Part shown: positions 1-18,438 of the stretch, piece by piece
Position numbering within the stretch: the stretch's first letter is position 1
Layout of the letters: every line of letters starts with the position of its first letter
From: a virus
Direction: 5' to 3' (one strand)
IMG/VR virus record: IMGVR_UViG_3300031951_000060
Coordinates: 1 to 64,000 of that record
DNA length: 64,000 nt
The notes under the pieces: model-generated
What the model saw: the letters and a program-made list of their open reading frames with translations, nothing else
Told to the model about the DNA's origin: nothing
Databases searched by the model: none
Made by a program: the position numbers and the translations under genes

Positions 1-87
1 CAGGTTACTATAGATGGAGAAACTATATGGACTCCAGTAATAGGAACAATAAATGTACTTGGAGATGTAACGGGAGGTAGTTTATAA
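1..87 (+). CDS. 3' end of a virion structural protein (BppU-N-like), truncated by window edge
   Basis: Frame 1 reads QVTIDGETIWTPVIGTINVLGDVTGGSL-stop; resembles the C-termini of ORFs 1709 and 9534; stop overlaps the next ATG (TAATG). Confidence 0.5.
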   Translation, partial: QVTIDGETIWTPVIGTINVLGDVTGGSL

Positions 88-962
88 TGCCAGTTATTAA
101 GATAGTGCCATTTCCTGGTGTACCAGGCGAAAAAGGCGATAAAGGCGATACAGGAAATACTGGGCCAATAGGTCCAACTGGATTGACTGGTGCGATGGGG
201 CCACAAGGTCCTGAAGGACCACAAGGTGAGCAAGGGATACAAGGTATCCAAGGTATACAAGGAGAAACTGGACCTGCTGGAGCAGATGCTCTTTGGAATT
301 ACACTGGAGCATATAGTGGTGGCTCAGCATATGGCGTCGGAGATCTAGCAACATATGACGGACAACTTTGGTATCGCAAACACGCTAATGGCGGTAATGT
401 TGGAGACACACCATCTGAAGGTTCGTTCTGGGATTTACTTGCAGCAAAAGGTGCAGATGGCGCACAAGGTCCTCAAGGAGAGCCAGGACAAGATGGTTCA
501 ATAGCAAATCTTAAATTTGGATCTTTTTTTGATACAACAATTCAGCCAGGTGGCGCTATTTCTCCTATATCCTTAAACTCTACAGATTTTTCAAACGGAG
601 TAACAATTGTAGATGGTTCAAGAATAACAATGGATACTTTGGGAATTTATAATATTGCATTTAGTTTACAATTAGAAAAAACTGGTGGATCTTCAGCAGA
701 TGTTTATATTTGGATGAGGCATAATGACGTGGATGTTCCAGATACAGCAACAATTATTCACATGGCTAATAATAATACTTACAATGTTGCTGCGTGGAAT
801 TTCTTTGTAAATTGTGACGTTCTACCTCAAGACTTTCAGTTGATGTGGTACACAGCAAGCACAAATGTTTCTATTTCTGCCATTAATGATGCTGGTACTC
901 CAGTTGGAGTTCCTTCTATACCGTCAATTATTGTGACAGTAAATAAAGTCGGGGATCTGTAA
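87..962 (+). CDS. Collagen-like (Gly-X-Y) virion fibre protein with CBM5/12-like insert and beta-rich C-terminal head
   Basis: Long GXY run (GEKGDKGDTGNTGPIGPTG...); AYGVGDLATYDGQLW motif typical of small carbohydrate-binding modules; BclA/C1q-like C-terminus. Confidence 0.75.
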   Translation: MPVIKIVPFPGVPGEKGDKGDTGNTGPIGPTGLTGAMGPQGPEGPQGEQGIQGIQGIQGETGPAGADALWNYTGAYSGGSAYGVGDLATYDGQLWYRKHANGGNVGDTPSEGSFWDLLAAKGADGAQGPQGEPGQDGSIANLKFGSFFDTTIQPGGAISPISLNSTDFSNGVTIVDGSRITMDTLGIYNIAFSLQLEKTGGSSADVYIWMRHNDVDVPDTATIIHMANNNTYNVAAWNFFVNCDVLPQDFQLMWYTASTNVSISAINDAGTPVGVPSIPSIIVTVNKVGDL

Positions 963-972
963 AGATTGAGCC

Positions 973-1692
973 ATGGCTGTATCTAAATCCATGGACTTTC
1001 CTACAGGTAAAAAATCTAGTTATGCCGCACAGGTAGTCGAAACTCAAAATGTTAACACAGATGTATTAATTAACTATGTGCCCGTTCCAGGGCCTATGGG
1101 GCCACAAGGACCGCAAGGGGTACCTGGACCTATGGGGCAGTCTGGAAAAGACGGAGAAAGAGGTCCTAAAGGCGATAGAGGGGCACCAGGAAAAGACGGT
1201 CAAAGTTCTTTGTCAGCATCTGGACAGCAGTCTGGTTGGGGTGCATATTTTAATTCTATTAAGAAAGAGATAAGGCTAGGTGCAGACAAAGGTGAAGACG
1301 GATGGGTTAGTGTCTGGGTAGATTCGAAAGGAATTAATACAAACCAAAAATACTTACCAGAAGAATGTACAAGTCTGTGGAATGCAGACCAAAGAATGCT
1401 TAATTTTCATGGGTTAAAAATAGGATCTCAGGTTTTTGTAACTTATAACTTTGAATTAACAACGTATAGTAATAATACAGAGGTTTGGATGAGAACATTT
1501 TTTCCTAAATCTACCACCGAAATTTCGCAGTTTGTGGCGTCTCTAAAATACCAATATGTTTATAATATGTATGTCACTCAGCATTTCTTTATTGAAAACA
1601 ACACTATGTGGTCAGCAGGTGCAATTCCACAGATTCGAACCGACTATGAATCTTCAGTTTTAATGAATTCTATATATGTATCTGTGATATAA
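973..1692 (+). CDS. Collagen-like virion fibre protein
   Basis: GPMGPQGPQGVPGPMGQSGKDGERGPKGDRGAPGKDG triple-helix repeat followed by a globular domain. Confidence 0.7.
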   Translation: MAVSKSMDFPTGKKSSYAAQVVETQNVNTDVLINYVPVPGPMGPQGPQGVPGPMGQSGKDGERGPKGDRGAPGKDGQSSLSASGQQSGWGAYFNSIKKEIRLGADKGEDGWVSVWVDSKGINTNQKYLPEECTSLWNADQRMLNFHGLKIGSQVFVTYNFELTTYSNNTEVWMRTFFPKSTTEISQFVASLKYQYVYNMYVTQHFFIENNTMWSAGAIPQIRTDYESSVLMNSIYVSVI

Positions 1693-1693
1693 T
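1685..1693 (+). promoter_or_regulatory. Extended -10 promoter TGaTATAAT overlapping the upstream stop codon
   Basis: Exact TGnTATAAT match, followed by GAGGAGG SD and ATG at 1709; the motif recurs before many genes. Confidence 0.6.
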
Positions 1694-1708
1694 TTACGAG
1701 GAGGAACT

Positions 1709-2125
1709 ATGGCATTTCCAGGAACATACAATATTTCATATTACAAGGGTGACACCCACGAGTTTCGTATTTACCCCAAAACAGCAGATGGAGATGTTTT
1801 TGATCTTACCCCATATGTAGGTGGAGACTATGATGACGATAATAATCCAGGAACTCCAGTTGTTGACGCAGACGCCGTAGTTTTTTCTTTTTCAGAAAGC
1901 AGAGGGGCCTCAAATCCTCATAAATGTTTTGCACAAATATCTGAGGATAAGACTTACATAACTTGTGTCATTAGACCAGAAGATTCTCAATACTTAACTG
2001 CAGGAACTAATTATGTATATGACGTACAAATATTTAAACCAGCAAGTGGATCTATAACATATCCAACGATCCATACTTTACTTACTGGTAATATCACTGT
2101 AACTGGACAGGTATCGCAGTGGTAG
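1709..2125 (+). CDS. Virion structural protein, BppU N-terminal-like
   Basis: YKGDT...FDLT...YVYDVQI...LLTGNITV pattern of BppU-N-like Ig-fold phage proteins; strong SD. Confidence 0.55.
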   Translation: MAFPGTYNISYYKGDTHEFRIYPKTADGDVFDLTPYVGGDYDDDNNPGTPVVDADAVVFSFSESRGASNPHKCFAQISEDKTYITCVIRPEDSQYLTAGTNYVYDVQIFKPASGSITYPTIHTLLTGNITVTGQVSQW

Positions 2126-2709
2126 ATGTTCTTTTAGCAAGCGATGATTTAGTTGTTCTTGGAGGTCCAGAAACTGTAAATGTTGAAGTGGATTTCGGAC
2201 AAAAAGGAGATAGGGGCAGTCTGGTTTTTGTAGGAAATCAAAAACCAATTGATGATCCAGAAGATTTTAAAGACTTAGTTGGTCAAACTCCAAACATATT
2301 TGATTTATATATAAATTTATTAACAACTGATGATGAATACCTAATGATATATCAGTATGTAGAAGTCTTAGGGGCAAAACAGTGGCAAACTCTTACAAAG
2401 TTAATTCCTAATACTTATGTTACCAATCAAAATATTGATTTTACTACATCTAATTATTGCCATATTCCAATTGCATCAATAGTTGATCCATCTTATGTTG
2501 GTAATACAAATGCATCCAATTTTAGTGTTCAGGCAACATTTAGTACATCAGCAGGATATCCAATTGTTAGTTCTATAAAAGTAGAAGTAGTGTCTTTAAG
2601 TGGTATTCAAAATTTAAAAATAACGTTTTATGCAAAGGAATTTGACGGAACCAATTGGGTTGATATCTCTGGATCCAGAACGGCCAACCTTCATATTTCA
2701 GTGGTATAA
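2119..2709 (+). CDS. Hypothetical virion protein
   Basis: 196-aa ORF in a structural cluster; single GQKGDRGS collagen-like motif. Confidence 0.5.
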   Translation: MVDVLLASDDLVVLGGPETVNVEVDFGQKGDRGSLVFVGNQKPIDDPEDFKDLVGQTPNIFDLYINLLTTDDEYLMIYQYVEVLGAKQWQTLTKLIPNTYVTNQNIDFTTSNYCHIPIASIVDPSYVGNTNASNFSVQATFSTSAGYPIVSSIKVEVVSLSGIQNLKITFYAKEFDGTNWVDISGSRTANLHISVV

Positions 2710-2726
2710 TCAAAGGGGTGGTTTAA

Positions 2727-3377
2727 ATGGCAGTAGAAAATATTGGTGGTCTATACAATACTAAGCAGCCTGGATACGAAGATGCTGCAGATATACAAGC
2801 AGCACTAAAGGCTTTTCTTTATGGTAGTTATACCTATGACACTACAAGCACAGATCCTACACAACTGCCAAACCCCTCTTTAGCAAGACATCTTCAAGAT
2901 CTGAGAGATGATGTAACATTTTTAGAAAACCAGGGAATTGGATCTGATTATTTAACTTTAGCCCAAATTGCAGCAATAGTATCTCCTACTGATGGCTATA
3001 TTGCTATGGCATCAGATTCTAATGGTGGAGCAGTTGAATCCTTATATGCCTCCGCTTTTTATACAAATGAGGCACCCACAACAGATATAGTAGATGGAGT
3101 TCTTTGGGTAGACAAGGATTCCGCAGCACTTGATACATATGTTTATGACTCAACACTTTTACCAGGGGACCCATGGGTAAGAATCAATGATCTTAAGAAT
3201 ATTATTCAGGCAAAGGGTGATATACTTATCGGCAGTTCTGCTGAAAATGTTGACAATTTGTCTGTAGGCGCAAATGGAACAGTTTTAACTGCAGACGACT
3301 CAAGTCCACTTGGTGTCAAATGGCAACAGGTAGATACTGAGTCTATTATAATTTCATCCGTAATGGGTGCGTATTAG
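2727..3377 (+). CDS. Putative tail fibre/appendage protein
   Basis: APT..VDGVLWVDKD and KGDILIG..DNLSVGANGTVLTAD motifs common in phage fibres; preceded by TGGTATAAT at 2702-2710. Confidence 0.55.
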   Translation: MAVENIGGLYNTKQPGYEDAADIQAALKAFLYGSYTYDTTSTDPTQLPNPSLARHLQDLRDDVTFLENQGIGSDYLTLAQIAAIVSPTDGYIAMASDSNGGAVESLYASAFYTNEAPTTDIVDGVLWVDKDSAALDTYVYDSTLLPGDPWVRINDLKNIIQAKGDILIGSSAENVDNLSVGANGTVLTADDSSPLGVKWQQVDTESIIISSVMGAY

Positions 3378-3385
3378 GAGGAGAT

Positions 3386-3688
3386 ATGGCTACTACACCA
3401 AAATTAATGTATCGTGGAAATGCAGCAACATCTAACACCACACTTTATACAGTTGGTTCTGGAAAAACTGGAATTGTTACTGATATCGTTGTAACAAATA
3501 CAGATTCTGTGTCTGCTACTTTTACAATTAATCTTAATGGTACCGCTTTGCTTTCTGCAGCAACAATCGCAGCAAATAGCATGGCAACTTTTGAATTAAA
3601 ACAAGTATTAGAAGCAGCAGATACTATTTCTGGTTCTGCATCTGCTACTACTGTTAAATTTCATATAAGCGGAGTTGAGGTTGTCTAA
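3386..3688 (+). CDS. Small fibre-associated virion protein
   Basis: TTLYTV...IVTDIVVTN...FHISGVE beta-sandwich pattern; AGGAG SD. Confidence 0.5.
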   Translation: MATTPKLMYRGNAATSNTTLYTVGSGKTGIVTDIVVTNTDSVSATFTINLNGTALLSAATIAANSMATFELKQVLEAADTISGSASATTVKFHISGVEVV

Positions 3689-4290
3689 TGGCTTATTCCG
3701 TATACCCCGCACCTAGTTCTGGAATAACAGTCTCAGATGGAAACAATGCTGGTTGGAATCTTGGAGAAACTCAATGGGAGCAAATCTCTGAGTATAAAAA
3801 TGCAACAACTGTTGCTAATATAGATTTTTCTAGTATTCCGCAAACCTATAGAGGTTTAAAGTTGCAAATTGTTGGGTTAACTTTGTCAACTGCTGATCAA
3901 GTTTATTTAAGAATTAATAATGATTCTACTGTTAGCACTTATTCAAGATTTGGAAGAGCAGAAAGATCAAATAATAGTGGAACTATAACAGTAATACAGC
4001 AACATTCTCAAAACAAAATACAATTAAACGGAGATCAAAATGTAGAGTCAGGAAATACTTTTCATTGTTTCATACATTTTCCAAATTATACATCTTCTAA
4101 TGTTAAAAAACTTGAGTGGAACTCATATTATCAAACCGCAGTTGGAGCAGAAACTTTTTCTGCAGAGGGCACTTTTAGAAAAGGAACAACAACCCCAGCA
4201 ATAACATCTTTGAGATTACTTACCAATAGTACTAATATGTATTTTGATGGTAATGAGGCATTATCTGCATCATTGTGGGGTATAAAGTAA
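3688..4290 (+). CDS. Putative fibre tip/receptor-binding-type protein
   Basis: [13 protein letters not shown]...AITSLRL...SLWGIK pattern typical of phage fibre C-terminal domains. Confidence 0.5.
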
Positions 4291-4291
4291 A

Positions 4292-6028
4292 ATGTCAACA
4301 GTTAGTTCAACCAGTAAAGTAGCATACATGTATGACCAAGCGTCAGACACTTGGTATGCTGTTGCTGGTACTGCTAACACAAATGTTGCATATAACTGGA
4401 ATGCTGCTCATACTTTTGGATCTGTTGTAACTGTTAATGATGTTATTCGTGCCAAGGGTGGAGTAAATAGATTTCAAAACCCTACCGCCAGAAATACAAT
4501 AATCCCATCTCCTGTTAAAGGTACAGTTTGTTTTGTTGAGCAAACAGACGGCGGTACTGATATTAACCAAGTTCAAATTTATAACGGCACATCATGGGTA
4601 GGAATGTTAGATACCGAAACCCTAGTAACAAAAACTTCTGATTATACTTTAGGTCTTGCAGATGCAGGAAAAACTATTCTTGTTGATTCGACTCTATCTA
4701 GAAACATCACTATTCCAACAAATTTGTCTGTTCCATTTGCAATTGGACAAACCTTAAAAATAAATAGGCTAAATACTGGCGCTGTAAATATAGTAGGCTC
4801 ATCTGGAGTTATTATAAATAGTAGACAGGCTTCGACATCGATTGCAGAAAGATATGGAGTTGTAACTCTTATAAAAACAGATTCTGATACTTGGCTATTA
4901 TATGGCGACCTACTTCTTTCTTCTTCTTTTATTTCAACACCTACCCCTACCCCAACACCTACTCCTACTCCTACTCCAACAATAACTCCAGCACCTACCC
5001 CAGCACCTACCCCAGCACCTACCCCAGCACCTACACCTACTCCAACATCAGCACCAGAACCAACACCAACACCAACACCGACACCGACACCAACACCAAC
5101 ACCAACACCAACACCGACACCAACACCAACTCCAACACCAACCCCAATTCCAACAGTAACCTGTGGATCTCAATATGGAACGACTACTGGAGGAGTTTAT
5201 AGCGGATCATGTCCAGATGGGTCATGTCCAGGATGTACTCATTATCAAGAAGCCTGGTATAAGTGTTCTGACGGAACTACAAGTTCTACTAAGATATATG
5301 TTGGACTTGGATGTTCTACCCCAACACCAACCCCAACTCCGACTCCTACACCAACAACAAATTGTACTGATACAAGTCTTTTGTCTTCATCTCAGTGCGC
5401 TGACTGTGGTATGGTTTGGAGTCCTTTGTATGGTGAATGTATTTATGAATCATCGCCAACACCAACACCAACACCTACCCCAACACCTACACCAACACCT
5501 ACACCTACACCTACACCTAATCCATGCTCTGGAGATATTTCTCTTCTTGGCCCAAGTGCGTGTCAGTCTTGTGGATATTATTATTCAACCCAATTTGGAG
5601 AATGTATTGATATGCCTTCTCCAACCCCAACACCAACCCCAACACCAACCCCTACTCCTACCCCTACACCAGCACCGACACCTTCGCCTTGTGTTGCAGG
5701 CTCATGGGCATATTCTGAAACACCATGCCAAGATGGAACAGAATATGGATATAGATATAATGCAGACTGCAGTATGTATTGGTCAACAAGATCTTGTTCA
5801 AGTTCCCCAGCGCCTACCCCAGCGCCTACCCCAGCACCAACTCCAGCGCCTACCCCAGCACCAACTCCAGCGCCTACCCCAGCACCAACTCCAGCGCCTA
5901 CCCCAGCACCAACTCCAGCGCCTACCCCAGCACCAACTCCAGCGCCTACCCCAGCGCCTTGTGAGTGCGTAATGGATGAATGTTGGATGGGATGTCCTGC
6001 ATGCTGTAATGGTCAGTGCGGATGCTAA
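4292..6028 (+). CDS. Fibre protein with extensin/mucin-like Pro-Thr/Pro-Ala tracts alternating with Cys-rich modules
   Basis: N-terminal phage fibre domains ending ...TWLLYGDL, then five (PT)n/(PAPT)n tracts separated by Cys-rich modules; terminal [22 protein letters not shown]. Confidence 0.75.
4937..5959 (+). repeat. Coding tandem repeats (6-, 12- and 24-nt units) encoding PT/PAPT tracts
   Basis: For example, five exact copies of ccagcgcctaccccagcaccaact at 5819-5938. Confidence 0.9.
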
Positions 6029-6058
6029 CTTAGTGTATAATGTATAAAAAGGAGAAAA

Positions 6059-6496
6059 ATGGCCAAATTTGCATTCGTAGTAAATAATTCAGTGAAATAT
6101 GTTCTTTCACTTACTTCAGATTCAGAAGTTAATAATAAATGGATTGCTGCCTTAAAATCTGATATTGTTTTTAAAGATGCATCGTTAAACTATGGACTTG
6201 CTCCGTTAGATTTATTTATAGATAATAAATTTTATAAAAATAATAACGGTAACTTGGTCGAAGTTGTTGAAAATGAAGACTGGCAAAACTCAGATGCCAT
6301 TAGAATTGCAGGAATTATAGATGGAGAGGTGATTGGCATGAGAATAATAAATAAAGATGCCTTTTCAGAAGAAGATTTGCAAAGAATTGTAGATGCTTTC
6401 TTGTCAAATTCATCTATCATTGAGATAAGTGAAGATTCTCAGGTATCCATAGGATGGAACTGGGATGGCGACAATTTTTCAGAACCGAGCAATTAA
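6059..6496 (+). CDS. Small fibre-associated/assembly-type protein (two-repeat architecture)
   Basis: C-terminal IGWNWDGDNFSEP motif common in proteins downstream of phage fibres; AAGGAG SD. Confidence 0.5.
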   Translation: MAKFAFVVNNSVKYVLSLTSDSEVNNKWIAALKSDIVFKDASLNYGLAPLDLFIDNKFYKNNNGNLVEVVENEDWQNSDAIRIAGIIDGEVIGMRIINKDAFSEEDLQRIVDAFLSNSSIIEISEDSQVSIGWNWDGDNFSEPSN

Positions 6497-6735
6497 TGTC
6501 TGAAGAATTATCAGCATGGCAAAAATATAAACAAAATTTAGGAGAAACCAGGCCATGGGATTTGGTAAATCCTAATAGTGAATGGGTTTCAGAAGAAGTG
6601 TCTTCTTCACGTTATGAAATATGCAAGGCATGCCCAGAATTGATAAAATTAACCAAACAGTGTAAAAAGTGTGGATGCTTCATGTATGCAAAAACTAGAT
6701 TAGAAAAAGCAACTTGTCCGATAGGAAAATGGTAA
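6496..6735 (+). CDS. Small Cys-rich metal-binding protein (DUF6171-like)
   Basis: RYEICKACP...QCKKCGCFM.AK.....ATCPIGKW; start reassigned to ATG 6496, overlapping the upstream stop. Confidence 0.6.
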   Translation: MSEELSAWQKYKQNLGETRPWDLVNPNSEWVSEEVSSSRYEICKACPELIKLTKQCKKCGCFMYAKTRLEKATCPIGKW

Positions 6736-7331
6736 TGAATAAAATCGAAATTGCTCCAGGAATAATGATTTACAAAGATGTAATAGATGGATACGAGTCT
6801 ATCATTACTGATATAGAGGATGCTGTATTATTAAAGTCAGCATCATGGTCCCCTGCAGGAGTAAAAAGTGGAGAGCAGAATGGGGTAGATACAACCAAAA
6901 GAGATACTCTAACTATAGGTATTCCATATTCTGCAACGCCACAAGAAGATTTATCTAGTCCCTCTAAGGCGTTTTACTCTATTCTGGGCGGTATATTCTT
7001 TAATGCTTTTGATCCAGTAGAAAAAGATTATGCAAGAACTTATATGATTGATCTCCCATGGCATGACACATATGGAATACTAAAATATGGTGTGGGGCAA
7101 AAATTTGTAAACCATATAGACGATCATACAGATTATCACAGAAGAGTGTCTTTTGTATATTATTTAAATGATAACTATACTGGAGGAGAAATTAATTTCC
7201 CAAGATTTGATATATCGTACAAACCAAAAGCAAATGAAATGTTAGTTTTTCCATCAACATATGTATATAATCATTCTGTATCAGAGGTCACAGAGGGAGA
7301 ACGCTACGCCGTTGTAAGTTGGTTAAGATAG
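6729..7331 (+). CDS. 2OG-Fe(II) oxygenase, prolyl 4-hydroxylase-like
   Basis: LKYGVGQKFVNHIDD (HxD), YLNDNYTGGEINF, distal His in HSVSEV, and ERYAVVSW 2OG-binding motif. Confidence 0.85.
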   Translation: MVMNKIEIAPGIMIYKDVIDGYESIITDIEDAVLLKSASWSPAGVKSGEQNGVDTTKRDTLTIGIPYSATPQEDLSSPSKAFYSILGGIFFNAFDPVEKDYARTYMIDLPWHDTYGILKYGVGQKFVNHIDDHTDYHRRVSFVYYLNDNYTGGEINFPRFDISYKPKANEMLVFPSTYVYNHSVSEVTEGERYAVVSWLR

Positions 7332-7349
7332 TGTGGTATTATTTATAAT

Positions 7350-8276
7350 ATGTCTACTATATTTATAAGTATTCCTTGCTATCAAGATCCAGAAATATGG
7401 GAAACAGTTTCAAGTTTTTATAATAATGCTACTAATCCAGAAAATGTTTATTTTGGAATTACTAATCAGACAGATTCTCCAGAATTACACAAGGAAATGC
7501 TTTTAAAATTCCCAAATGTACAAATGCATATCTTGGAGCCTGGATCTTTGCCAGGGTGCCAGCCAGCAAGATTAAAGTCCCATGAGTTTTATGATGGGCA
7601 GGACTACTATTTAAACATGGACTCTCACATGAGAGCAGTTAAAGATTGGGATTCTAGGCTAATAGCAGAATTAAATGAAACAAATTTTATATACGGACCT
7701 TCAGTGCTAACTGGATACGTTGCAGGATATGACAAAGATGAATACGGAAAAGATATAATTCCTGAAGTTACATATACTACAGTTTTTAGAATGAATGAAA
7801 AAAATATAAATCATTTTATAAATCATGGCATTCCTCAGTTTATTTCCTTTCCTCATGAAACCAACAAGCCAATACCATCTCCGTACATCTCTGGTCATTT
7901 TTTCTTTACTACTGGTCAAGCAGTTTTAGATTCACCTTTTGTTGAAGATGTATTTTTTACAGAAGAAGAAATTTTTATGGCTGTTAGATTTTTCACTGCT
8001 GGATATAACTTATTTCAACCGACTACAACATATGTGTATCATAGATATGGAAGAAACAATCGTAGACTTTTTTGGGAAGACTTTCCTGAACATTGGTATG
8101 AAAATGATAAAAGGTCAAGAGATTTTGTAAATAATGTTTTACAAAACAATATAATTGATCCTAAAAAGGGATTATTTAATAAAAGAACTTTAGACGAGTT
8201 TGAGGAATATTCTGGAATTAATTTTAGAAAAAGAGCGTTATCAGATTCGGTAATTAAGGGTACATCGTATTTATAA
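7350..8276 (+). CDS. GT60/Gnt1-like polypeptide (hydroxyproline/Thr) N-acetylglucosaminyltransferase
   Basis: TIFISIPCYQDPE...ATNPENVYFGI N-terminus, MDSHMR..KDWD motif, F..EE...AVRFFTAGY: hallmark motifs of the Skp1 GlcNAc-transferase family. Confidence 0.8.
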   Translation: MSTIFISIPCYQDPEIWETVSSFYNNATNPENVYFGITNQTDSPELHKEMLLKFPNVQMHILEPGSLPGCQPARLKSHEFYDGQDYYLNMDSHMRAVKDWDSRLIAELNETNFIYGPSVLTGYVAGYDKDEYGKDIIPEVTYTTVFRMNEKNINHFINHGIPQFISFPHETNKPIPSPYISGHFFFTTGQAVLDSPFVEDVFFTEEEIFMAVRFFTAGYNLFQPTTTYVYHRYGRNNRRLFWEDFPEHWYENDKRSRDFVNNVLQNNIIDPKKGLFNKRTLDEFEEYSGINFRKRALSDSVIKGTSYL

Positions 8277-8280
8277 AATA

Positions 8281-8331
8281 AAAATATCCCAGAGCCAAAC
8301 AATATGAATGACCCTGGGATATTTTATTTAT
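8281..8331. terminator. Bidirectional intrinsic terminator between convergent genes
   Basis: Inverted repeat aaaatatcccag (8281-8292) / ctgggatatttt (8314-8325) with A- and T-rich flanks. Confidence 0.65.
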
Positions 8332-8895
8332 TTATTGCGGGAATTTACCAATCCATTCTTTTGTCCTTGGTGTTATTCCTTTCCAAGCACTCCAGTTTTC
8401 TCCGCCATTTGACATATGAAATGCGATTTGTGCATTTACAACTGGATTAAACAAGTCTGCATTGTGATCTAGGTCATATTTATTACGACGATCAGGACCA
8501 AGCATTCCGAGCATATTTATCTGGAAAATTCCATAAGAACTGTCTCCAGTTTTAGTATTTCCATTGAATGCAAGTGGTCGACCATTACTTTCTTTTTTAG
8601 CAATAGCCCATGCCTCCTTGAGATTTTGACCTTCAAATCCTACTAATTTAAGTAGTATCTTTAGGTCTTTATCAGATAGAGATGTGGCGTTGTTGTATTT
8701 TTCTAACTGATCTTCTTTAGCCTCAGAAACACTTTTGGCCTCTTTCGAGGCCTCTTTTGTTTCTTCTAGCACGATAGGTTTTATATCGTTTAATCGGTTT
8801 TCAGAAGCATTAGCAGCGTTTGACCAAACGGCAAACATAGCCAATATGCTGAGTGTACCAATGATGTTCTTGTTATTATTCATAAAAGTAATCAT
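8332..8895 (-). CDS. Secreted/anchored lysozyme-like lytic transglycosylase
   Basis: N-terminal hydrophobic signal; AWAIAKKESNG (catalytic Glu), SYGIFQIN, NWSAW motifs; start set at ATG 8895 behind a GGAGG SD. Confidence 0.8.
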   Translation of the reverse strand: MITFMNNNKNIIGTLSILAMFAVWSNAANASENRLNDIKPIVLEETKEASKEAKSVSEAKEDQLEKYNNATSLSDKDLKILLKLVGFEGQNLKEAWAIAKKESNGRPLAFNGNTKTGDSSYGIFQINMLGMLGPDRRNKYDLDHNADLFNPVVNAQIAFHMSNGGENWSAWKGITPRTKEWIGKFPQ

Positions 8896-8949
8896 AGTTT
8901 CCTCCTTAGAAACAGATAACACCTTTTTAGGGGTGTTATATTACTTCCT

Positions 8950-14510: not shown

Positions 14511-15545
14511 ATGGCATTACAAAGAAGCAGAGGTAGAACAGTAAGAAAGTCTCAGGTACCAACCTTTTCAACTTCTTTTACTAGATCTCAATATCAGTCT
14601 ACCCTTAGTTCATTAGGATTGTCTTATTCGGAGTCGTCATTTAATACAAGTGATAACGGATTAGACCAAAAATGGCAAGCACAAAATATTACCCCAGGAA
14701 CAGTTGTTCCATTTGGAACTACTATTGGTATTACATATTATATGTATGTATATCCTGGTTTCAGCCATTACGGCGGATTTGGTCACTATGGTGGCTTTGG
14801 TCACTATGGTGGCTTTGGTCACTACAGTAACTTTGGTCACTACAGTAACTTTGGTCACTACAGTAACTTCAGCCATTACGGCGGATTTGGTCACTACAGT
14901 AACTTCGGCCATTATAGTAACTTCAGCCATTATAGTAACTTCAGCCATTACGGTGGTTTTGGTCACTATAATAGTTTTAGTCATTATGGGTCCTTTAGTC
15001 ATGGATATGGTGGCTTTGCCCACTACGGAGGATTCTACGGCGGATTTAGCCATCATGGTGGTCTAGGCTGGTACTCTATTGGAGCACAAACTGGTATTTT
15101 GACACCAACTGGATCAATTACTGCAGAAAATGTTAAGGTTGGAGATAAACTATTAGCATTAAATGTTGACGAGATTGATTTATCAACCTTTAATCCAAAT
15201 GATTGGACGTCTGAAACCTTTACATCTCCATCAGTTGTAGAAACAGAGGTTGTCTCTGTGGTAAAACATGTTAAAGATACTGCTGTAAGAATTAATGGTG
15301 ATGTATTTTCACAAAGCCATAAAATCCTAACAAGAAAAGACGGAATAGTGCAGTTTGTATTATCAAGTCTAATCGACGGATCTTTTGAGGTTTGGAGTTA
15401 TACTGAACAAAATTGGGTTCCTGTAACAGAATTTGAAACAATATCTTATATTGATAAGGTATATTCTATCAACTGTGAGCCATACGACATGTTCTTTACT
15501 AACAACATGTTGGTTTACGATAGCGATTCAAACATACCATCCTAG
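14511..15545 (+). CDS. PASTA-like domain + (xxF[G/S]HY)n hexapeptide repeat + C-terminal Hint-like domain protein
   Basis: VP......QSTLSSLGL...AQNITPGTVVPFGTTI (PASTA-like); about 15 GGFGHY/SNFGHY/SNFSHY units; SIGAQTGILTPTG...ENVKVGDKL...SQSHKIL...VYSINCEPYDMFFTNNMLVYD (Hint blocks A, B, F, G). Confidence 0.75.
   Translation: MALQRSRGRTVRKSQVPTFSTSFTRSQYQSTLSSLGLSYSESSFNTSDNGLDQKWQAQNITPGTVVPFGTTIGITYYMYVYPGFSHYGGFGHYGGFGHYGGFGHYSNFGHYSNFGHYSNFSHYGGFGHYSNFGHYSNFSHYSNFSHYGGFGHYNSFSHYGSFSHGYGGFAHYGGFYGGFSHHGGLGWYSIGAQTGILTPTGSITAENVKVGDKLLALNVDEIDLSTFNPNDWTSETFTSPSVVETEVVSVVKHVKDTAVRINGDVFSQSHKILTRKDGIVQFVLSSLIDGSFEVWSYTEQNWVPVTEFETISYIDKVYSINCEPYDMFFTNNMLVYDSDSNIPS
14754..15056 (+). repeat. 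18-nt coding tandem repeat (about 15-16 degenerate units)
   Basis: ggtggctttggtcactat / agtaactttggtcactac / agtaacttcagccattat variants in tandem. Confidence 0.9.
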
Positions 15546-15559
15546 TAGAAAGCGGTATC

Positions 15560-16303
15560 ATGGGAAGACTTCCTAATGATGAGTATTATCCAAAAGAATG
15601 GAAAGAAAATCAGCCATACGTTCATAAACACGAAGACATATCACTAAATTCTGATCGTGTAACTAAGGGAGATATGGCAACACCATTTTCCATCAGTCCA
15701 CAAATATCTGACTTTACGAGAAAGTTTGGCGAAGAGTTAGCAGAAATGCCTACTGCAGAAGAGATGGCTCAATGGCATTTTCCCTGGGATAAAGAATACA
15801 GAGAGGGAACATCCTTTTTTGTACCAGAAAATAGATATACTCATGAAGCAATATTTCCTCCACAATTAGTTAAAGATAATATTTATAAAATATTACTTTC
15901 TCCAGATATATATGTAAAGATAATTTCTTCTGAATTAATTTTAAATAGTAAAAAACACATAACAAACGAGTATAAATTTATTAGTAGAACTCTTTATACT
16001 CATCTAGAGCCTACAGATAAAATAATTGAAGATGAGTCTATGTGGGAAACTTGGTGCCCTAGAGTGTATCAATGGAATATTAGGTGGCTACCAAAAGACA
16101 ATGCAAGATTAACATTTTTTGTGGATAAAGATATTGAAGATATGCTATACTGTAATGTAGAGGAATACTCTATAGATACAAAAGATATTGACGGAGGATG
16201 TGTGGCAGTCCCAGTTACTTTTAGGAGGGGTTTAAAGAAAAAAATGGCATATATGAAACATGATACCCCTTATTTATACTTAAAGGTTGACACCTATGAA
16301 TAA
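15560..16303 (+). CDS. Hypothetical protein, probable divergent paralog of the next two genes
   Basis: PKEWKENQPY, ISPQISDF, YQWNIRWLPK and HDTPYLYL align loosely with PLWWRKQEPY, KCPGILDL, FVWDMRWGTK and AGTPIMSI. Confidence 0.5.
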   Translation: MGRLPNDEYYPKEWKENQPYVHKHEDISLNSDRVTKGDMATPFSISPQISDFTRKFGEELAEMPTAEEMAQWHFPWDKEYREGTSFFVPENRYTHEAIFPPQLVKDNIYKILLSPDIYVKIISSELILNSKKHITNEYKFISRTLYTHLEPTDKIIEDESMWETWCPRVYQWNIRWLPKDNARLTFFVDKDIEDMLYCNVEEYSIDTKDIDGGCVAVPVTFRRGLKKKMAYMKHDTPYLYLKVDTYE

Positions 16304-17009
16304 AAAAAATATTATAAACTTTATTCCAAAAGATGAATACACTATTGAGTATGCATCAAAGCCAGAGCCAATGTCTAAAAACTTCCCTCTATGGTGGAGA
16401 AAACAAGAACCATATGTTGGTGGAGAAAAAAGAGTGGTAAATGGGCAATATAATGAAACTGTAAAAAAGTGTCCAGGAATATTAGATTTACTAGTTACTG
16501 GTTATCTTCTTAAGACCCCATGTGATATTTATGTGGATACCACTGAAGATAAATTACAATTTCAGGTTCATGATGCACACAAAGAATGCGTAACTATTCA
16601 TACTAGAGAACAAGTTGGCAATTGGGATTTTGATAGATCTGTCTGGTCAGATGATATTTTTAGAATACATCCTATGTGGGTTGTAACTACTCAAAAGGGC
16701 TATAGTACTTTATTTATTCATCCATCATTTCACAATGACCTACCATTTGATATTGTTCCAGCAATTATAGATACAGACATGTATCCATCAGATGGGCCAT
16801 TTTCTATGAGATTTAAAAAGGGTTTTAAGGGTGTAATAGAGGCTGGAACTCCACTCGTTCAATGTATCCCATACAAAAGAGAGCATTTTGAAGCCAACAT
16901 ATTGGAAAAGCCTGATTTAAAAATTTTAAAATCTTTACAACAAAAATTAAGACACAAGTTTGGCGGATCTTATAAAAAATTAATGTGGGAAAAGAAGGTG
17001 TTTAATTAA
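16296..17009 (+). CDS. Uncharacterised DUF6065-like (dUTPase-fold-like) protein
   Basis: P.WW....KKCPGILD....GY.L.TP.D...W....KGYSTLFIHP...IIDTD...GTPLVQCIPYKR. Confidence 0.55.
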   Translation: MNKKNIINFIPKDEYTIEYASKPEPMSKNFPLWWRKQEPYVGGEKRVVNGQYNETVKKCPGILDLLVTGYLLKTPCDIYVDTTEDKLQFQVHDAHKECVTIHTREQVGNWDFDRSVWSDDIFRIHPMWVVTTQKGYSTLFIHPSFHNDLPFDIVPAIIDTDMYPSDGPFSMRFKKGFKGVIEAGTPLVQCIPYKREHFEANILEKPDLKILKSLQQKLRHKFGGSYKKLMWEKKVFN

Positions 17010-17770
17010 TGGATAAATTTGAAGAAAAGTATAAAAATCCAGAACCACTAGAGGACAACGTGGTAAAGTTTTTTACCTCTAGTGCATATATTAAAACAAC
17101 TCCAAGCCCAGTGCCAGCAATAAACAATTTGCCAAACTGGTGGAAAGATAGGCCAATCTATCAAAGAAATGATGATATTGATAGATTATCTATAGTTAAT
17201 AATCGTGGTGCGGATGCAGCATCTATTAGCGTTAAGCATTGTATGCCGTTTTTTGATGCTCTTACATGTGGATATCACTATCTTTTACCAACCACAGTGA
17301 CAGTAAAAAAGACAGATGACCCAGATACTCCAGACATATCCTGGGACCCAACAAAAGCACGTCCTATAGAGATGCGTGGACATATAGAACTTCCAGTCCC
17401 AGCAAATTGTTATCCAATTCACTTTGTTTGGGATATGAGATGGGGAACAAAAATGCCAGATGGTTGGTCAGCAATGATCACTCATCCAATTGATAGGTAT
17501 GATCTTCCGTTTTTTACAATGACGGCAATTCAAGATTCAGACAGATGGTTTACTGGAAATGTTGTGACATTCTTTTTAAGAAAAGATTTTGAGGGTGAAA
17601 TTCCAGCAGGAACTCCAATAATGTCCATTATTCCAATTAAAAGAGCAAATTGGACGATGGAAGTTGACCACTCCCTTATGCACGAGGGTCTGTGGGATTT
17701 AGAGAGAAAAAGAAATTATTTATATGGATTCTATAAAAAGCATAGATGGATTAGAAAAAAATATCGATAG
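17009..17770 (+). CDS. Uncharacterised DUF6065-like protein, paralog of the upstream gene
   Basis: PNWWK...VKHCMPFFDALTCGY...PDGWSAMITHP..RYDLPF....IQDSD...GTPIMSIIPIKR. Confidence 0.55.
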   Translation: MDKFEEKYKNPEPLEDNVVKFFTSSAYIKTTPSPVPAINNLPNWWKDRPIYQRNDDIDRLSIVNNRGADAASISVKHCMPFFDALTCGYHYLLPTTVTVKKTDDPDTPDISWDPTKARPIEMRGHIELPVPANCYPIHFVWDMRWGTKMPDGWSAMITHPIDRYDLPFFTMTAIQDSDRWFTGNVVTFFLRKDFEGEIPAGTPIMSIIPIKRANWTMEVDHSLMHEGLWDLERKRNYLYGFYKKHRWIRKKYR

Positions 17771-17778
17771 GAGATAAA

Positions 17779-18438
17779 ATGAACAACTACGAATATGGCG
17801 ATTCACATCAGCCAAGTGTTAGCAGGTCCAAAAAAGAGCATTTGTTCTTTGAAAGACAAATAGATATTAATGATACAGATCACCTAGCAAAATTAATGCT
17901 TGATCTAAATGAAAGAATATCTAGGGGAGAAGTGATCAAGGGAGATAGAAATCAGCACACCCCATGGGATAACTCTGGTAGTCAGCCAACAATTAATTGG
18001 AATAAATATAATGTATTTCAAGTATATGACAAAAACATACATACCCTTTTTAGGGCAGTTAGAGACATGACAGTTGAAGCATGTAAGCATTATGAGTTAG
18101 ACTTTACTAAAGAGCAGTTTATGGTTCAAGGTTGGTTTAATGTCAACTACAACCATATTGGAAAACTAGATTGGCATGAGCATGGTGGTGAAGGTGCGCC
18201 ACATTTTCATGGCTACTACTGCGTTAAGGCAGAGCCATCAATAACCTATTATCGTGTTTTTGAAAAAGAAATAGAAAATCATAATAAAAATAATCGTGCC
18301 ATATTGTCAGAGACAGGACACCCACATGCCATGGGTGACTGGGATTGGGAAGGTCCAAGAATTACTATAGCCTATGATGTAATTCCATTAAGACTTATTC
18401 CTATGGAGTGGGAGCAGCACTGGATTCCTTTGGTGTAA
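17779..18438 (+). CDS. Putative 2OG-Fe(II) oxygenase (HxH-type)
   Basis: WFNVN...WHEH...FHGYYCV...HPHAM...RITIAYD double-stranded beta-helix motifs. Confidence 0.7.
   Translation: MNNYEYGDSHQPSVSRSKKEHLFFERQIDINDTDHLAKLMLDLNERISRGEVIKGDRNQHTPWDNSGSQPTINWNKYNVFQVYDKNIHTLFRAVRDMTVEACKHYELDFTKEQFMVQGWFNVNYNHIGKLDWHEHGGEGAPHFHGYYCVKAEPSITYYRVFEKEIENHNKNNRAILSETGHPHAMGDWDWEGPRITIAYDVIPLRLIPMEWEQHWIPLV

Follow-up and report, generated by a model that had tools for sequence, protein, structure and literature searches.

A candidate glycoprotein-tailoring cassette behind a Pro/Thr-rich linker protein in the tail-fibre module of an IMG/VR phage

Gene composition of the fibre-linker locus

We analyzed a putative modification cassette in the IMG/VR virus record IMGVR_UViG_3300031951_000060. 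The window, i.e. the whole stretch of DNA under study, comprises 64 kb and represents the start of this 100,597-bp record, whose CheckV completeness is 93%. The cassette (4292-8276) consists of a fibre-end protein with Pro/Thr-rich linkers, a small open reading frame (ORF), a DUF6171 protein, an oxygenase of the prolyl 4-hydroxylase (P4H) type that belongs to the Fe(II)/2-oxoglutarate (2OG) oxygenases, and a glycosyltransferase (GT) of family GT60. A sequence-only reading of the window had described a fibre with five Pro/Thr tracts followed by two small genes, a prolyl-4-hydroxylase-like oxygenase and a GT60-like transferase. All of these parts are present (Table 1), and profile searches for the GlcNAc (GT60) and P4H-type oxygenase families gave matches above the cut-off for both enzymes. 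In the following, L numbers denote compared loci, G numbers contigs and P numbers metagenomic protein entries.

The linker protein is the only (PT)n ORF in the 100.6-kb record; Pro, Thr and Cys account for 102, 111 and 27 of its residues, respectively. Residues 109-207 correspond to the C-terminal ends of minor tail or virion structural PHROGs, with the best match to phrog_8780. The five tracts are encoded by imperfect tandem repeats of 6, 12 and 24 nucleotides (nt), the last tract being (PAPT)12-13, and five modules of 4-8 Cys each are located between and after them. In two related loci (L012 and L102) the fibre-end domain is a separate ORF of 209 aa. In some relatives a fusion includes the N-terminal part of ORF 2727-3377: in L096, one protein combines a region resembling this ORF with the fibre-end domain and with linkers of the P/T type and their Cys modules. 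The PHROG tail homology, the collagen-like and tail-fibre genes on the flank and this fusion to a tail-fibre N-terminus point to a fibre protein, which we regard as a putative virion appendage.

Variants of this architecture were found in relatives. The (PT)n Cys-rich proteins of L010, L013 and L012 carry aromatic repeats of the (FFxPPG)n or a similar type, behind which a Hint-like domain follows; in L010 and L013 this domain ends in ...VHNK. Additionally, some (PT)n proteins of relatives begin with a PASTA domain. The linker modules therefore appear to be shuffled among several fibre-region architectures.

The small ORF 6059-6496 is conserved in position and weakly conserved in sequence: its positional counterparts in relatives are linked to one another by a series of weak similarities (E 1e-9 to 1e-3). 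A role as fibre chaperone or assembly factor would be a guess. The following gene encodes a DUF6171 protein, whose match to PF19668 (E 2e-5, 25 bits) lies under the Pfam cut-off of 27 bits, while phrog_13558 was matched with E 1e-15. Its six Cys residues are invariant in 17 homologues, and it is probably a metal-binding protein. DUF6171 is fused to the N-terminus of GT60 in L010, L011, L013 and L016-L018 and in the entries P0042, P0043, P0046 and P0051. Since it occurs both as a free protein next to the P4H and as a fusion with GT60, we read it as probably a detachable six-Cys accessory domain of the transferase or the hydroxylase.

The oxygenase ORF (6714-7331) matched PF13640 (2OG-FeII_Oxy_3) with E 1e-18 and 68 bits (cut-off 27), and it contains the motif HID...H...RYAVVSW on which the sequence-only reading was based. 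Translation probably starts at ATG 6735, as in the database entry P0068. Across 32 homologues there is no variation at H127, D129 and H180 and next to none at R190; these residues correspond to the HxD...H facial triad and the basic residue for the 2OG C5 carboxylate. The closest sequence relative in the PDB is the P4H of Bacillus anthracis (BaP4H, E 3e-5). The AlphaFold2 (AF2) model has a predicted local distance difference test score (pLDDT) of 91.3, and almost all of the 50 listed Foldseek PDB matches are prolyl hydroxylases, with template modelling (TM) scores of 0.45-0.73 and E values down to 8e-11. The first three were Dictyostelium PhyA (DdPhyA, 6t8m), the Pseudomonas prolyl hydroxylase PPHD (4iw3) and CrP4H of Chlamydomonas with bound (Ser-Pro)5 (3gze); PHD2, vCPH of PBCV-1 (5c5t, rank 17) and BaP4H followed further down. 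In the structural alignment with DdPhyA the identity is about 18%. Among 2OG oxygenases, the predicted fold is nearest to the protein prolyl hydroxylases, and the P4H-like assignment, as judged from profile and model, is well founded. No second PF13640 gene is present in the 100.6-kb record. The single (PT)n ORF lies 0.7 kb away from the oxygenase gene, and we do not regard this pairing as chance. Hydroxylation of peptidyl proline is the putative activity, suggested by the constant adjacency to Pro-containing proteins with periodic linkers or repeats.

The transferase gene begins 18 nt after the oxygenase gene. Its product matched PF11397 (GlcNAc) with E 4e-52 and 178.3 bits (cut-off 21), covering profile positions 89-321 and an N-terminal stretch, and it carries the DSHMR motif. 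Within 19 homologues including both paralogues of the same record, D91-S-H93 is invariant and H183 nearly invariant, so that the DxH and a further conserved His are both present. From the DxH of the related polypeptide GalNAc transferases of family GT27 (pp-GalNAcTs; PMC6939170) we infer that D91, H93 and H183 may act as metal ligands. No relative was found among PDB sequences at E <= 1. Matches in cultured phages were limited to four Xanthomonas/Stenotrophomonas jumbo phages with 25-28% identity. PF11397 relatives are common in phages and bacteria, with IMG/VR contributing at least 577 encoding stretches and the GTDB species genomes at least 554, and the term 'eukaryote-like' that had been applied to the cassette is thus overstated. 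Transfer of alpha-GlcNAc to a polypeptide hydroxyl is the putative activity, as suggested by the co-localisation with (PT)n genes described below.

The genes from 87 to 8276 are all located on the plus strand and form a tail-fibre module with collagen-like and other fibre-like genes. Between 2727 and 8276 no intergenic gap exceeds 30 nt, and two junctions, those at both ends of the DUF6171 gene, are TAATG start/stop overlaps. Promoter and terminator scans gave counts no different from shuffled sequence, and NCBIfam yielded weak sub-threshold matches only. A comparison of the DNA of 6000-8400 with cultured phages gave no similarity match. Because the portal protein shares 46% identity with that of Streptomyces phages of about 130 kb, and because PASTA domains are present in fibre-region neighbour proteins of relatives, an actinobacterial host is likely.

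Two further PF11397 paralogues are present in the record, both outside the window. The first, GT60b, belongs to a second tailoring-type cluster (74733-81678 of the record) without a Pro/Thr-repeat gene beside it. The other is orientated divergently from an adjoining HSP20/alpha-crystallin gene.

Table 1. Positions and supporting matches of the cassette genes, their neighbours, and selected genes in the remainder of the record and in other loci
Feature	Position	Strand	Support and remarks
Fibre-end and linker protein, 578 aa	4292-6028	+	candidate substrate
N-terminal fibre-end domain, aa 1-213	4292-4930	+	phrog_8780 (E 5e-16), phrog_21510, phrog_21978, phrog_18179
Five (PT)n/(PAPT)n tracts alternating with Cys-rich modules	4931-5959 (tracts 4931-5155, 5315-5362, 5447-5524, 5615-5689, 5798-5959)	+	translation; aa 214-288, 342-357, 386-411, 442-466, 503-556; proposed modification sites
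C-terminal 8-Cys module and stop codon	5960-6028	+	translation
Small ORF, 145 aa, no family	6059-6496	+	no Pfam match; strong AAGGAG before ATG
DUF6171 six-Cys protein, 79 aa from ATG 6496	6496-6735 (ORF also from 6454)	+	PF19668, phrog_13558
P4H-type Fe(II)/2OG oxygenase, 198 aa	6735-7331	+	PF13640; HID...H...RYAVVSW
GT60-family GT-A glycosyltransferase, 308 aa	7350-8276	+	PF11397; DSHMR; phrog_24687 (E 2e-37)
Collagen-like tail fibre, (G-X-Y)19	87-962	+	PF01391; Pro mostly in X position
Collagen-like tail fibre, (G-X-Y)13	973-1692	+	PF01391; Pro mostly in X position
Three upstream fibre-module genes	2727-3377, 3386-3688, 3688-4290	+	PHROG tail-fibre matches for 2727-3377
Lysozyme-like SLT_3 gene	8332-8922	-	PF18896 (E 2e-15); right border of variable slot
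Repeat protein with Hint-like end	14511-15545		first gene of 14511-18438
Carbamoyltransferase, GT60b cluster	within 74733-81678 of record		PF02543/PF16861
ox188-family 2OG oxygenase, GT60b cluster	78144-79031 of record		E 3e-21; about 0.8 kb from GT60b
GT60b paralogue	79797-80861 of record		PF11397 (E 1e-17)
AspH/LpxO-like oxygenase, GT60b cluster	81109-81678 of record		PF05118 (E 3e-15); about 250 nt from GT60b
Other ORFs of GT60b cluster	within 74733-81678 of record		two unknown of about 310-320 aa; one of 84 aa
Third GT60 paralogue, 361 aa	86691-88267 of record	-	PF11397 (E 2e-26)
Fused fibre and linker protein, 993 aa	L096 3343-6324		tail-fibre region, fibre-end domain and P/T linkers
(PT)n Cys-rich proteins with aromatic repeats and Hint-like domain	L010 2974-5733; L013 3112-5733; L012 2727-4379
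NAD-dependent epimerase/dehydratase	L099 10116-11138; L104 1327-2364		PF01370 (E 1e-35); after P4H
Gal-3-O-sulfotransferase-like ORF, 265 aa	L012 4627-5424		phrog_3347 (E 6e-8); HIPKTGGTS; between DUF6171 and P4H
Array of P4H paralogues	L107 5007-14055		example of L107-L112
Giant alphaproteobacterial proteins, 1709-2452 aa	L183 4921-10050; L190 3988-10083; L145 4066-10149; L170 2938-10296		Rickettsiales and other metagenome-assembled genomes

Co-localisation of the enzymes with Pro/Thr-rich genes

Within the same lineage, seven loci carry GT60s of 50-74% identity, and all of these with a visible upstream region encode a large (PT)n Cys-rich protein immediately upstream of GT60. A further comparison of eleven loci (L096-L106) was centred on P4H orthologues with 53-66% identity. 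In each of the eleven the P4H gene follows that of a Cys-rich protein whose linkers are periodic and of the P/T or P/S type, mostly past a small ORF and a DUF6171 gene. The general order is the fibre-end/linker/Cys protein, the small ORF, DUF6171, P4H and a set of variable enzymes. This slot is bounded by fibre genes and by the lysozyme-like gene on the opposite strand, which was found at the equivalent place in L007-L009, L012 and L096-L106. We use the latter as a border marker and do not propose it as part of the pathway.

The linker units differ among the phages: (PT)n, (PTPVA)n, (VTP)n, (VSPVG)n and (PTTT)n were found, and Pro always occurs together with Thr or Ser. The variable enzymes comprise GT60 and its paralogues or GT60-like proteins, a second oxygenase family here named ox188, PF01370 epimerases/dehydratases, a cupin and a protein with a weak GT8 match. 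The PF01370 genes would imply nucleotide sugars made by the phage for the tailoring GTs, and the sulfotransferase-like ORF of L012 hints at sulfated glycans. With several GTs, an enzyme for sugar nucleotides and a sulfotransferase of the carbohydrate type thereby grouped next to one repetitive protein, the slot can be read as a glycoprotein-tailoring island. The co-variation of linker unit and enzyme set was viewed by eye and represents few independent events.

To go beyond the lineage we compared 87 viral GT60 loci, which were the seven close ones and 80 further ones (28-36% identity, three at about 50%). Many of the further loci are from genomes of far larger size, in which genes for SprB-repeat proteins, HtrL_YibB and GT25 are found as well. 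In about 40 of the 87 loci, (PT)n ORFs were located within 7 kb of the GT60 gene; most of them were Cys-rich, and 15 lay no more than 100 nt away. A (TP)5-coding pattern was searched in the whole contigs behind 35 of the loci. Matches were found in 13 contigs and formed 21 gene-level clusters, of which 17 were located within 5.5 kb of GT60, a zone that covers about 10% of the 1.59 Mb in these 13 contigs (binomial p 2.7e-14). The reversed pattern, used as control, gave no matches. Furthermore, ORFs with (P[TS])5 were present at 36/87 viral and at only 6/80 bacterial GT60 loci (Fisher p 2.8e-7).

The acceptor of alpha-GlcNAc transfer by characterised GT60 enzymes is Thr of mucin-like repeats in Trypanosoma cruzi and Dictyostelium or, in the case of Gnt1, the hydroxyproline (Hyp) of Skp1 (PMC8724618, PMC6939170). 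The most economical reading of the gene neighbourhoods is a polypeptide transferase whose gene, placed in fibre modules, adjoins that of an acceptor of the textbook kind. It had been suggested earlier that the adjacent Pro/Thr-rich fibre is the substrate of both enzymes. The synteny and the co-localisation of (PT)n genes with GT60 lend this proposal strong comparative support and make it probable. With moderate confidence we interpret the whole cassette as phage-encoded post-translational tailoring of distal tail-fibre linkers.

Several observations weigh against this interpretation. The synteny within the lineage is shared descent and not independent evidence. GT60 and (PT)n genes may both simply be located in fibre modules. 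The two GT60 paralogues of the record lack an adjoining (PT)n gene, and a strict (TP)5 tract is missing from the entire contig in 22 of the 35 long GT60 contigs, so GT60s must have other acceptors too. The P4H clade contains more than 900 clusters (E <= 1e-5, metagenomes) compared with 62 for the GT60 clade, and its far larger size indicates a P4H function independent of this GT60. The status of ORF 4292-6028 as a virion appendage depends on the homology of one domain. Finally, an unpublished amino-acid analysis cited in PMC7019647 (ref. 162) reports that virions of PBCV-1, which encodes a P4H of its own, are without hydroxyproline.

Some of these points would also fit enzymes with other protein targets, such as the collagen-like fibres, the repeat protein at 14511 or a host protein (e.g. 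EF-Tu or a ribosomal protein) for the P4H and other virion or host proteins for the GT60, in which case the PT tracts would be plain flexible linkers. The collagen-like genes are located at a distance of 3-6 kb upstream and, in relatives, keep synteny with P4H. BaP4H, the best PDB sequence match of the oxygenase, acts on collagen peptides, and bacterial P4H/PHD relatives such as 4iw3 act on EF-Tu. Arrays of P4H genes in L107-L112 follow a Hint-domain repeat protein and not a (PT)n protein, and the contigs without (TP)5 fit here as well. However, X-Pro-Gly sites number only about four in the collagen-like runs, where Pro mostly occupies the X position, against the 102 Pro of ORF 4292-6028. The collagen-like fibres are never immediate neighbours of P4H, and the localisation of (PT)n genes at GT60 holds in unrelated phages. 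We therefore regard other protein targets as unlikely.

The enzymes could also act on a non-protein substrate, i.e. on DNA bases, which would be hydroxylated and subsequently glycosylated as with base J or in T-even phages, on a cell-wall precursor or on a small molecule. Glycosylation of hydroxymethylated bases is known from phages, and TET/JBP-type 2OG oxygenases are the initiating enzymes of pathways of this kind. Among the PHROG matches of the oxygenase some bear names of DNA enzymes, the ox188 model is AlkB-like in Foldseek as well, and a carbamoyltransferase and more oxygenases cluster with GT60b outside the window. On the other hand, characterised GT60s are polypeptide transferases, the cassette lies inside a tail-fibre module, and the fold matches of the P4H are almost all protein prolyl hydroxylases and not TET/JBP or AlkB. 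A substrate of this kind is very improbable. A search of the genome for a DNA-base pathway revealed no Tet_JBP match above the cut-off, the best (14.8 vs 34.9 bits) being the P4H itself, and no gene of the thymidylate-synthase/hydroxymethylase family.

Possible coupling of hydroxylase and transferase

The sequence-only reading had further drawn on the Skp1 pathway; in a strict order of this kind the P4H makes 4-hydroxyproline and the GT60 then adds GlcNAc to Hyp alone. The P4H gene adjoins GT60 in the window and in L007, L008 and L012, and the Skp1 hydroxylase PhyA of Dictyostelium ranks first among the structural matches of the oxygenase. Moreover, the protist Gnt1 requires the earlier action of PhyA (PMC6939170).

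Fusions of an oxygenase with GT60 are consistent with such a coupling. In L009 the P4H position is occupied by a different protein of 188 aa, which belongs to ox188. The entry P0039 (490 aa, 15 member sequences) is an in-frame fusion of ox188 with GT60 and shares 71% identity with the L009 protein over 184 residues. The AF2 model of ox188 (pLDDT 95.5) has a 2OG-oxygenase fold with conserved H92-x-D94...H138. Comparison of ox188 with the P4H family by hhalign was not significant (E 0.12-0.45), and there was no match in Pfam, so that the 2OG placement comes from AF2/Foldseek and phrog_2954 membership only. A second type of fusion was found in giant alphaproteobacterial proteins. These contain several PF11397 and two PF13640/PF13661 domains together with GT2 or other GT-like pieces, and three of the four contain AhpC/TSA as well. 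No (PT)n gene was detected within 6 kb of them. The proximity of GT60b to an AspH-like and an ox188-family oxygenase points to a link between the two enzyme types as well.

A number of 2OG-Fe(II) oxygenases of cyanophages are labelled 'ferrochelatase' in some RefSeq records (e.g. NC_048049.1, NC_070962.1 and NC_023587.1), and the PHROG names of phrog_2954 and phrog_3531 read likewise. This looks like a propagated annotation error.

The wider distribution of the genes speaks against a strict two-step order. PF13640 was present in 5 and ox188 in 2 of 34 long GT60-bearing phage contigs, leaving 29 and 32 without, respectively; an obligate dependence of GT60 on prior hydroxylation is thus not seen at the family level. 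Neither oxygenase was found in G024 (297 kb, 100% complete) or in G015 and G029 (87-88% complete), and several contigs free of P4H and ox188 still have (PT)n genes flanking GT60. In L010, L011 and L013 the DUF6171-GT60 fusion lies beside the (PT)n protein, and the P4H is located 5.7 kb away behind a second repeat-plus-Hint protein. Conversely, six loci with P4H orthologues (L099, L100 and L102-L105) are without a GT of the PF11397 family. Finally, Thr is as constant as Pro in the linkers.

Based on these data the Skp1-like order does not hold as a rule, and we consider hydroxylation followed by exclusive GlcNAc transfer to Hyp rather unlikely for the present cassette as well. Given the fusions of oxygenase and GT60, the two activities may nonetheless be coupled. 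Regarding the expected co-occurrence of PT-repeat fibres with the P4H and GT60 pair, the association of each enzyme with the linkers was recovered; as a pair, the enzymes are often apart. In our reading, each enzyme family is separately associated with fibre-region repeat proteins that contain Pro, and the two would meet on the linkers of ORF 4292-6028. A sugar on Thr (mucin type) is favoured over one on Hyp (Skp1/extensin type), Thr being at least as likely an acceptor.

For the proposed tailoring of the linkers we infer substrate, acceptor residue, sugar and effect on the virion as follows. The genes would be co-transcribed and their products would act in the cytoplasm of the infected cell. 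The P4H-type oxygenase would hydroxylate linker prolines with Fe(II), 2OG and O2. The GT60 would add an N-acetylhexosamine (HexNAc) to a linker hydroxyl, most likely GlcNAc from the abundant UDP-GlcNAc of the host, with Thr as the more likely acceptor and Hyp as the alternative. The DUF6171 protein would serve both enzymes as a detachable accessory domain. The product would be an extended glycoprotein stalk resembling mucins or extensins; stiffness, resistance to proteases and presentation of the Cys-rich modules, as put forward in the sequence-only reading, would be putative properties of it. Since the slot is hypervariable among relatives, the decoration probably diversifies.

A further group of genes at 14511-18438 of the window starts with the Hint-ended repeat protein and continues with three related proteins of about 240-250 aa and an ORF of 219 aa. 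In L107-L112 a homologue of the repeat protein 14511-15545 precedes a hydroxylase array of unusual size, which consists of about ten P4H paralogues in tandem, interleaved with homologues of the window region 16287-17770. The presence of these homologues inside the P4H arrays indicates that the two cassettes (4292-8276 and 14511-18438) share an enzyme repertoire.

Relation to known systems and significance

The nearest counterpart is the Skp1 pathway of protists with PhyA and Gnt1. The same two families are paired, the transferases share the DxH, and both systems are cytoplasmic. However, Skp1 has one target Pro, whereas the linker protein is repetitive with dozens of sites, and a Hyp acceptor is not required by the comparative data. 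The later enzymes PgtA and AgtA/Gat1 were not seen here. The search for Skp1 (PF01466) in the 100.6-kb record gave no match, and control genomes gave none either. Skp1 is not known from phages or bacteria. The cassette is not assigned to the Skp1 pathway here.

The polypeptide alpha-GlcNAc-transferases (pp-alphaGlcNAc-transferases) of T. cruzi and Dictyostelium (PMC8724618) modify Thr in Pro/Thr repeats and need no prior hydroxylation, which fits the contigs with (PT)n genes and GT60 that lack a P4H. These are type II membrane proteins of the eukaryotic Golgi, whereas the phage enzyme has no evident anchor, is presumed to be cytoplasmic and is encoded next to P4H and DUF6171.

Glycosylation of their own structural proteins by phage GTs has been described for mycobacteriophages such as Che8 (Freeman 2023, as reported in PMC12582341 and PMC11256854). 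Phage-encoded GTs and, probably, actinobacterial hosts are common to both systems. The Che8-type targets, as far as PMC11256854 describes them, are capsid proteins and the GTs are located near the 3' end of the genome. A prolyl hydroxylase, a GT60, a (PT)n linker and a fibre cassette are not mentioned in the texts consulted.

A virus-encoded P4H with Pro-rich viral repeats as substrate is known from PBCV-1, whose vCPH accepts the virus's own repeats in vitro, e.g. (PAPK)n (Eriksson 1999, as summarised in PMC7019647). In this case the virus is a giant virus of eukaryotes, and no GT60 partner has been described. The extensins and arabinogalactan proteins found in plants and in green algae are similar in that hydroxylation and O-glycosylation of periodic Pro-rich repeats result in glycoproteins of a stiff, extended shape, and 3gze was the third-best structural match of the oxygenase. 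These are, however, secretory proteins modified by GT95/GT96-type enzymes with Ara and Gal sugars, and none of those GT families was found here.

A literature search for GT60 or hydroxyproline in phages returned nothing relevant. Virion glycosylation in mycobacteriophages, a P4H acting on viral repeats in PBCV-1 and the protist pair of P4H and GT60 are already known. What appears to be new is the combination of a GT60, a P4H-type oxygenase and a six-Cys partner in a hypervariable slot behind a Pro/Thr-linker fibre, which was not found in the searchable literature.

A broader generalisation is tentative and in our view doubtful at present: tailed phages of aquatic bacteria might build mucin- or extensin-like appendages by means of a hypervariable tailoring island with P4H or other 2OG oxygenases, GT60, epimerases and sulfotransferase-like enzymes. 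This island would diversify in the manner of O-antigens, and part of the decoration would be Hyp-linked here, by the same module as in protist Skp1.

If the proposed tailoring is true, O-glycosylated fibres would be widespread in uncultured phages and would be made by a family known mostly from protist mucins and Skp1. The presentation of receptor-binding modules would be changed, and effects on the resistance to proteases and grazing, on the stickiness to polysaccharide matrices and on phage antigenicity could be expected. A conserved slot filled by a variable set of enzymes suggests an arms race at this locus. For bacterial glyco-engineering, P4H and GT60 enzymes that are small, soluble and cytoplasmic and act on simple repeats would also be of use. 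Furthermore, the finding would bear on the origin of the eukaryotic PhyA/Gnt1 pair.

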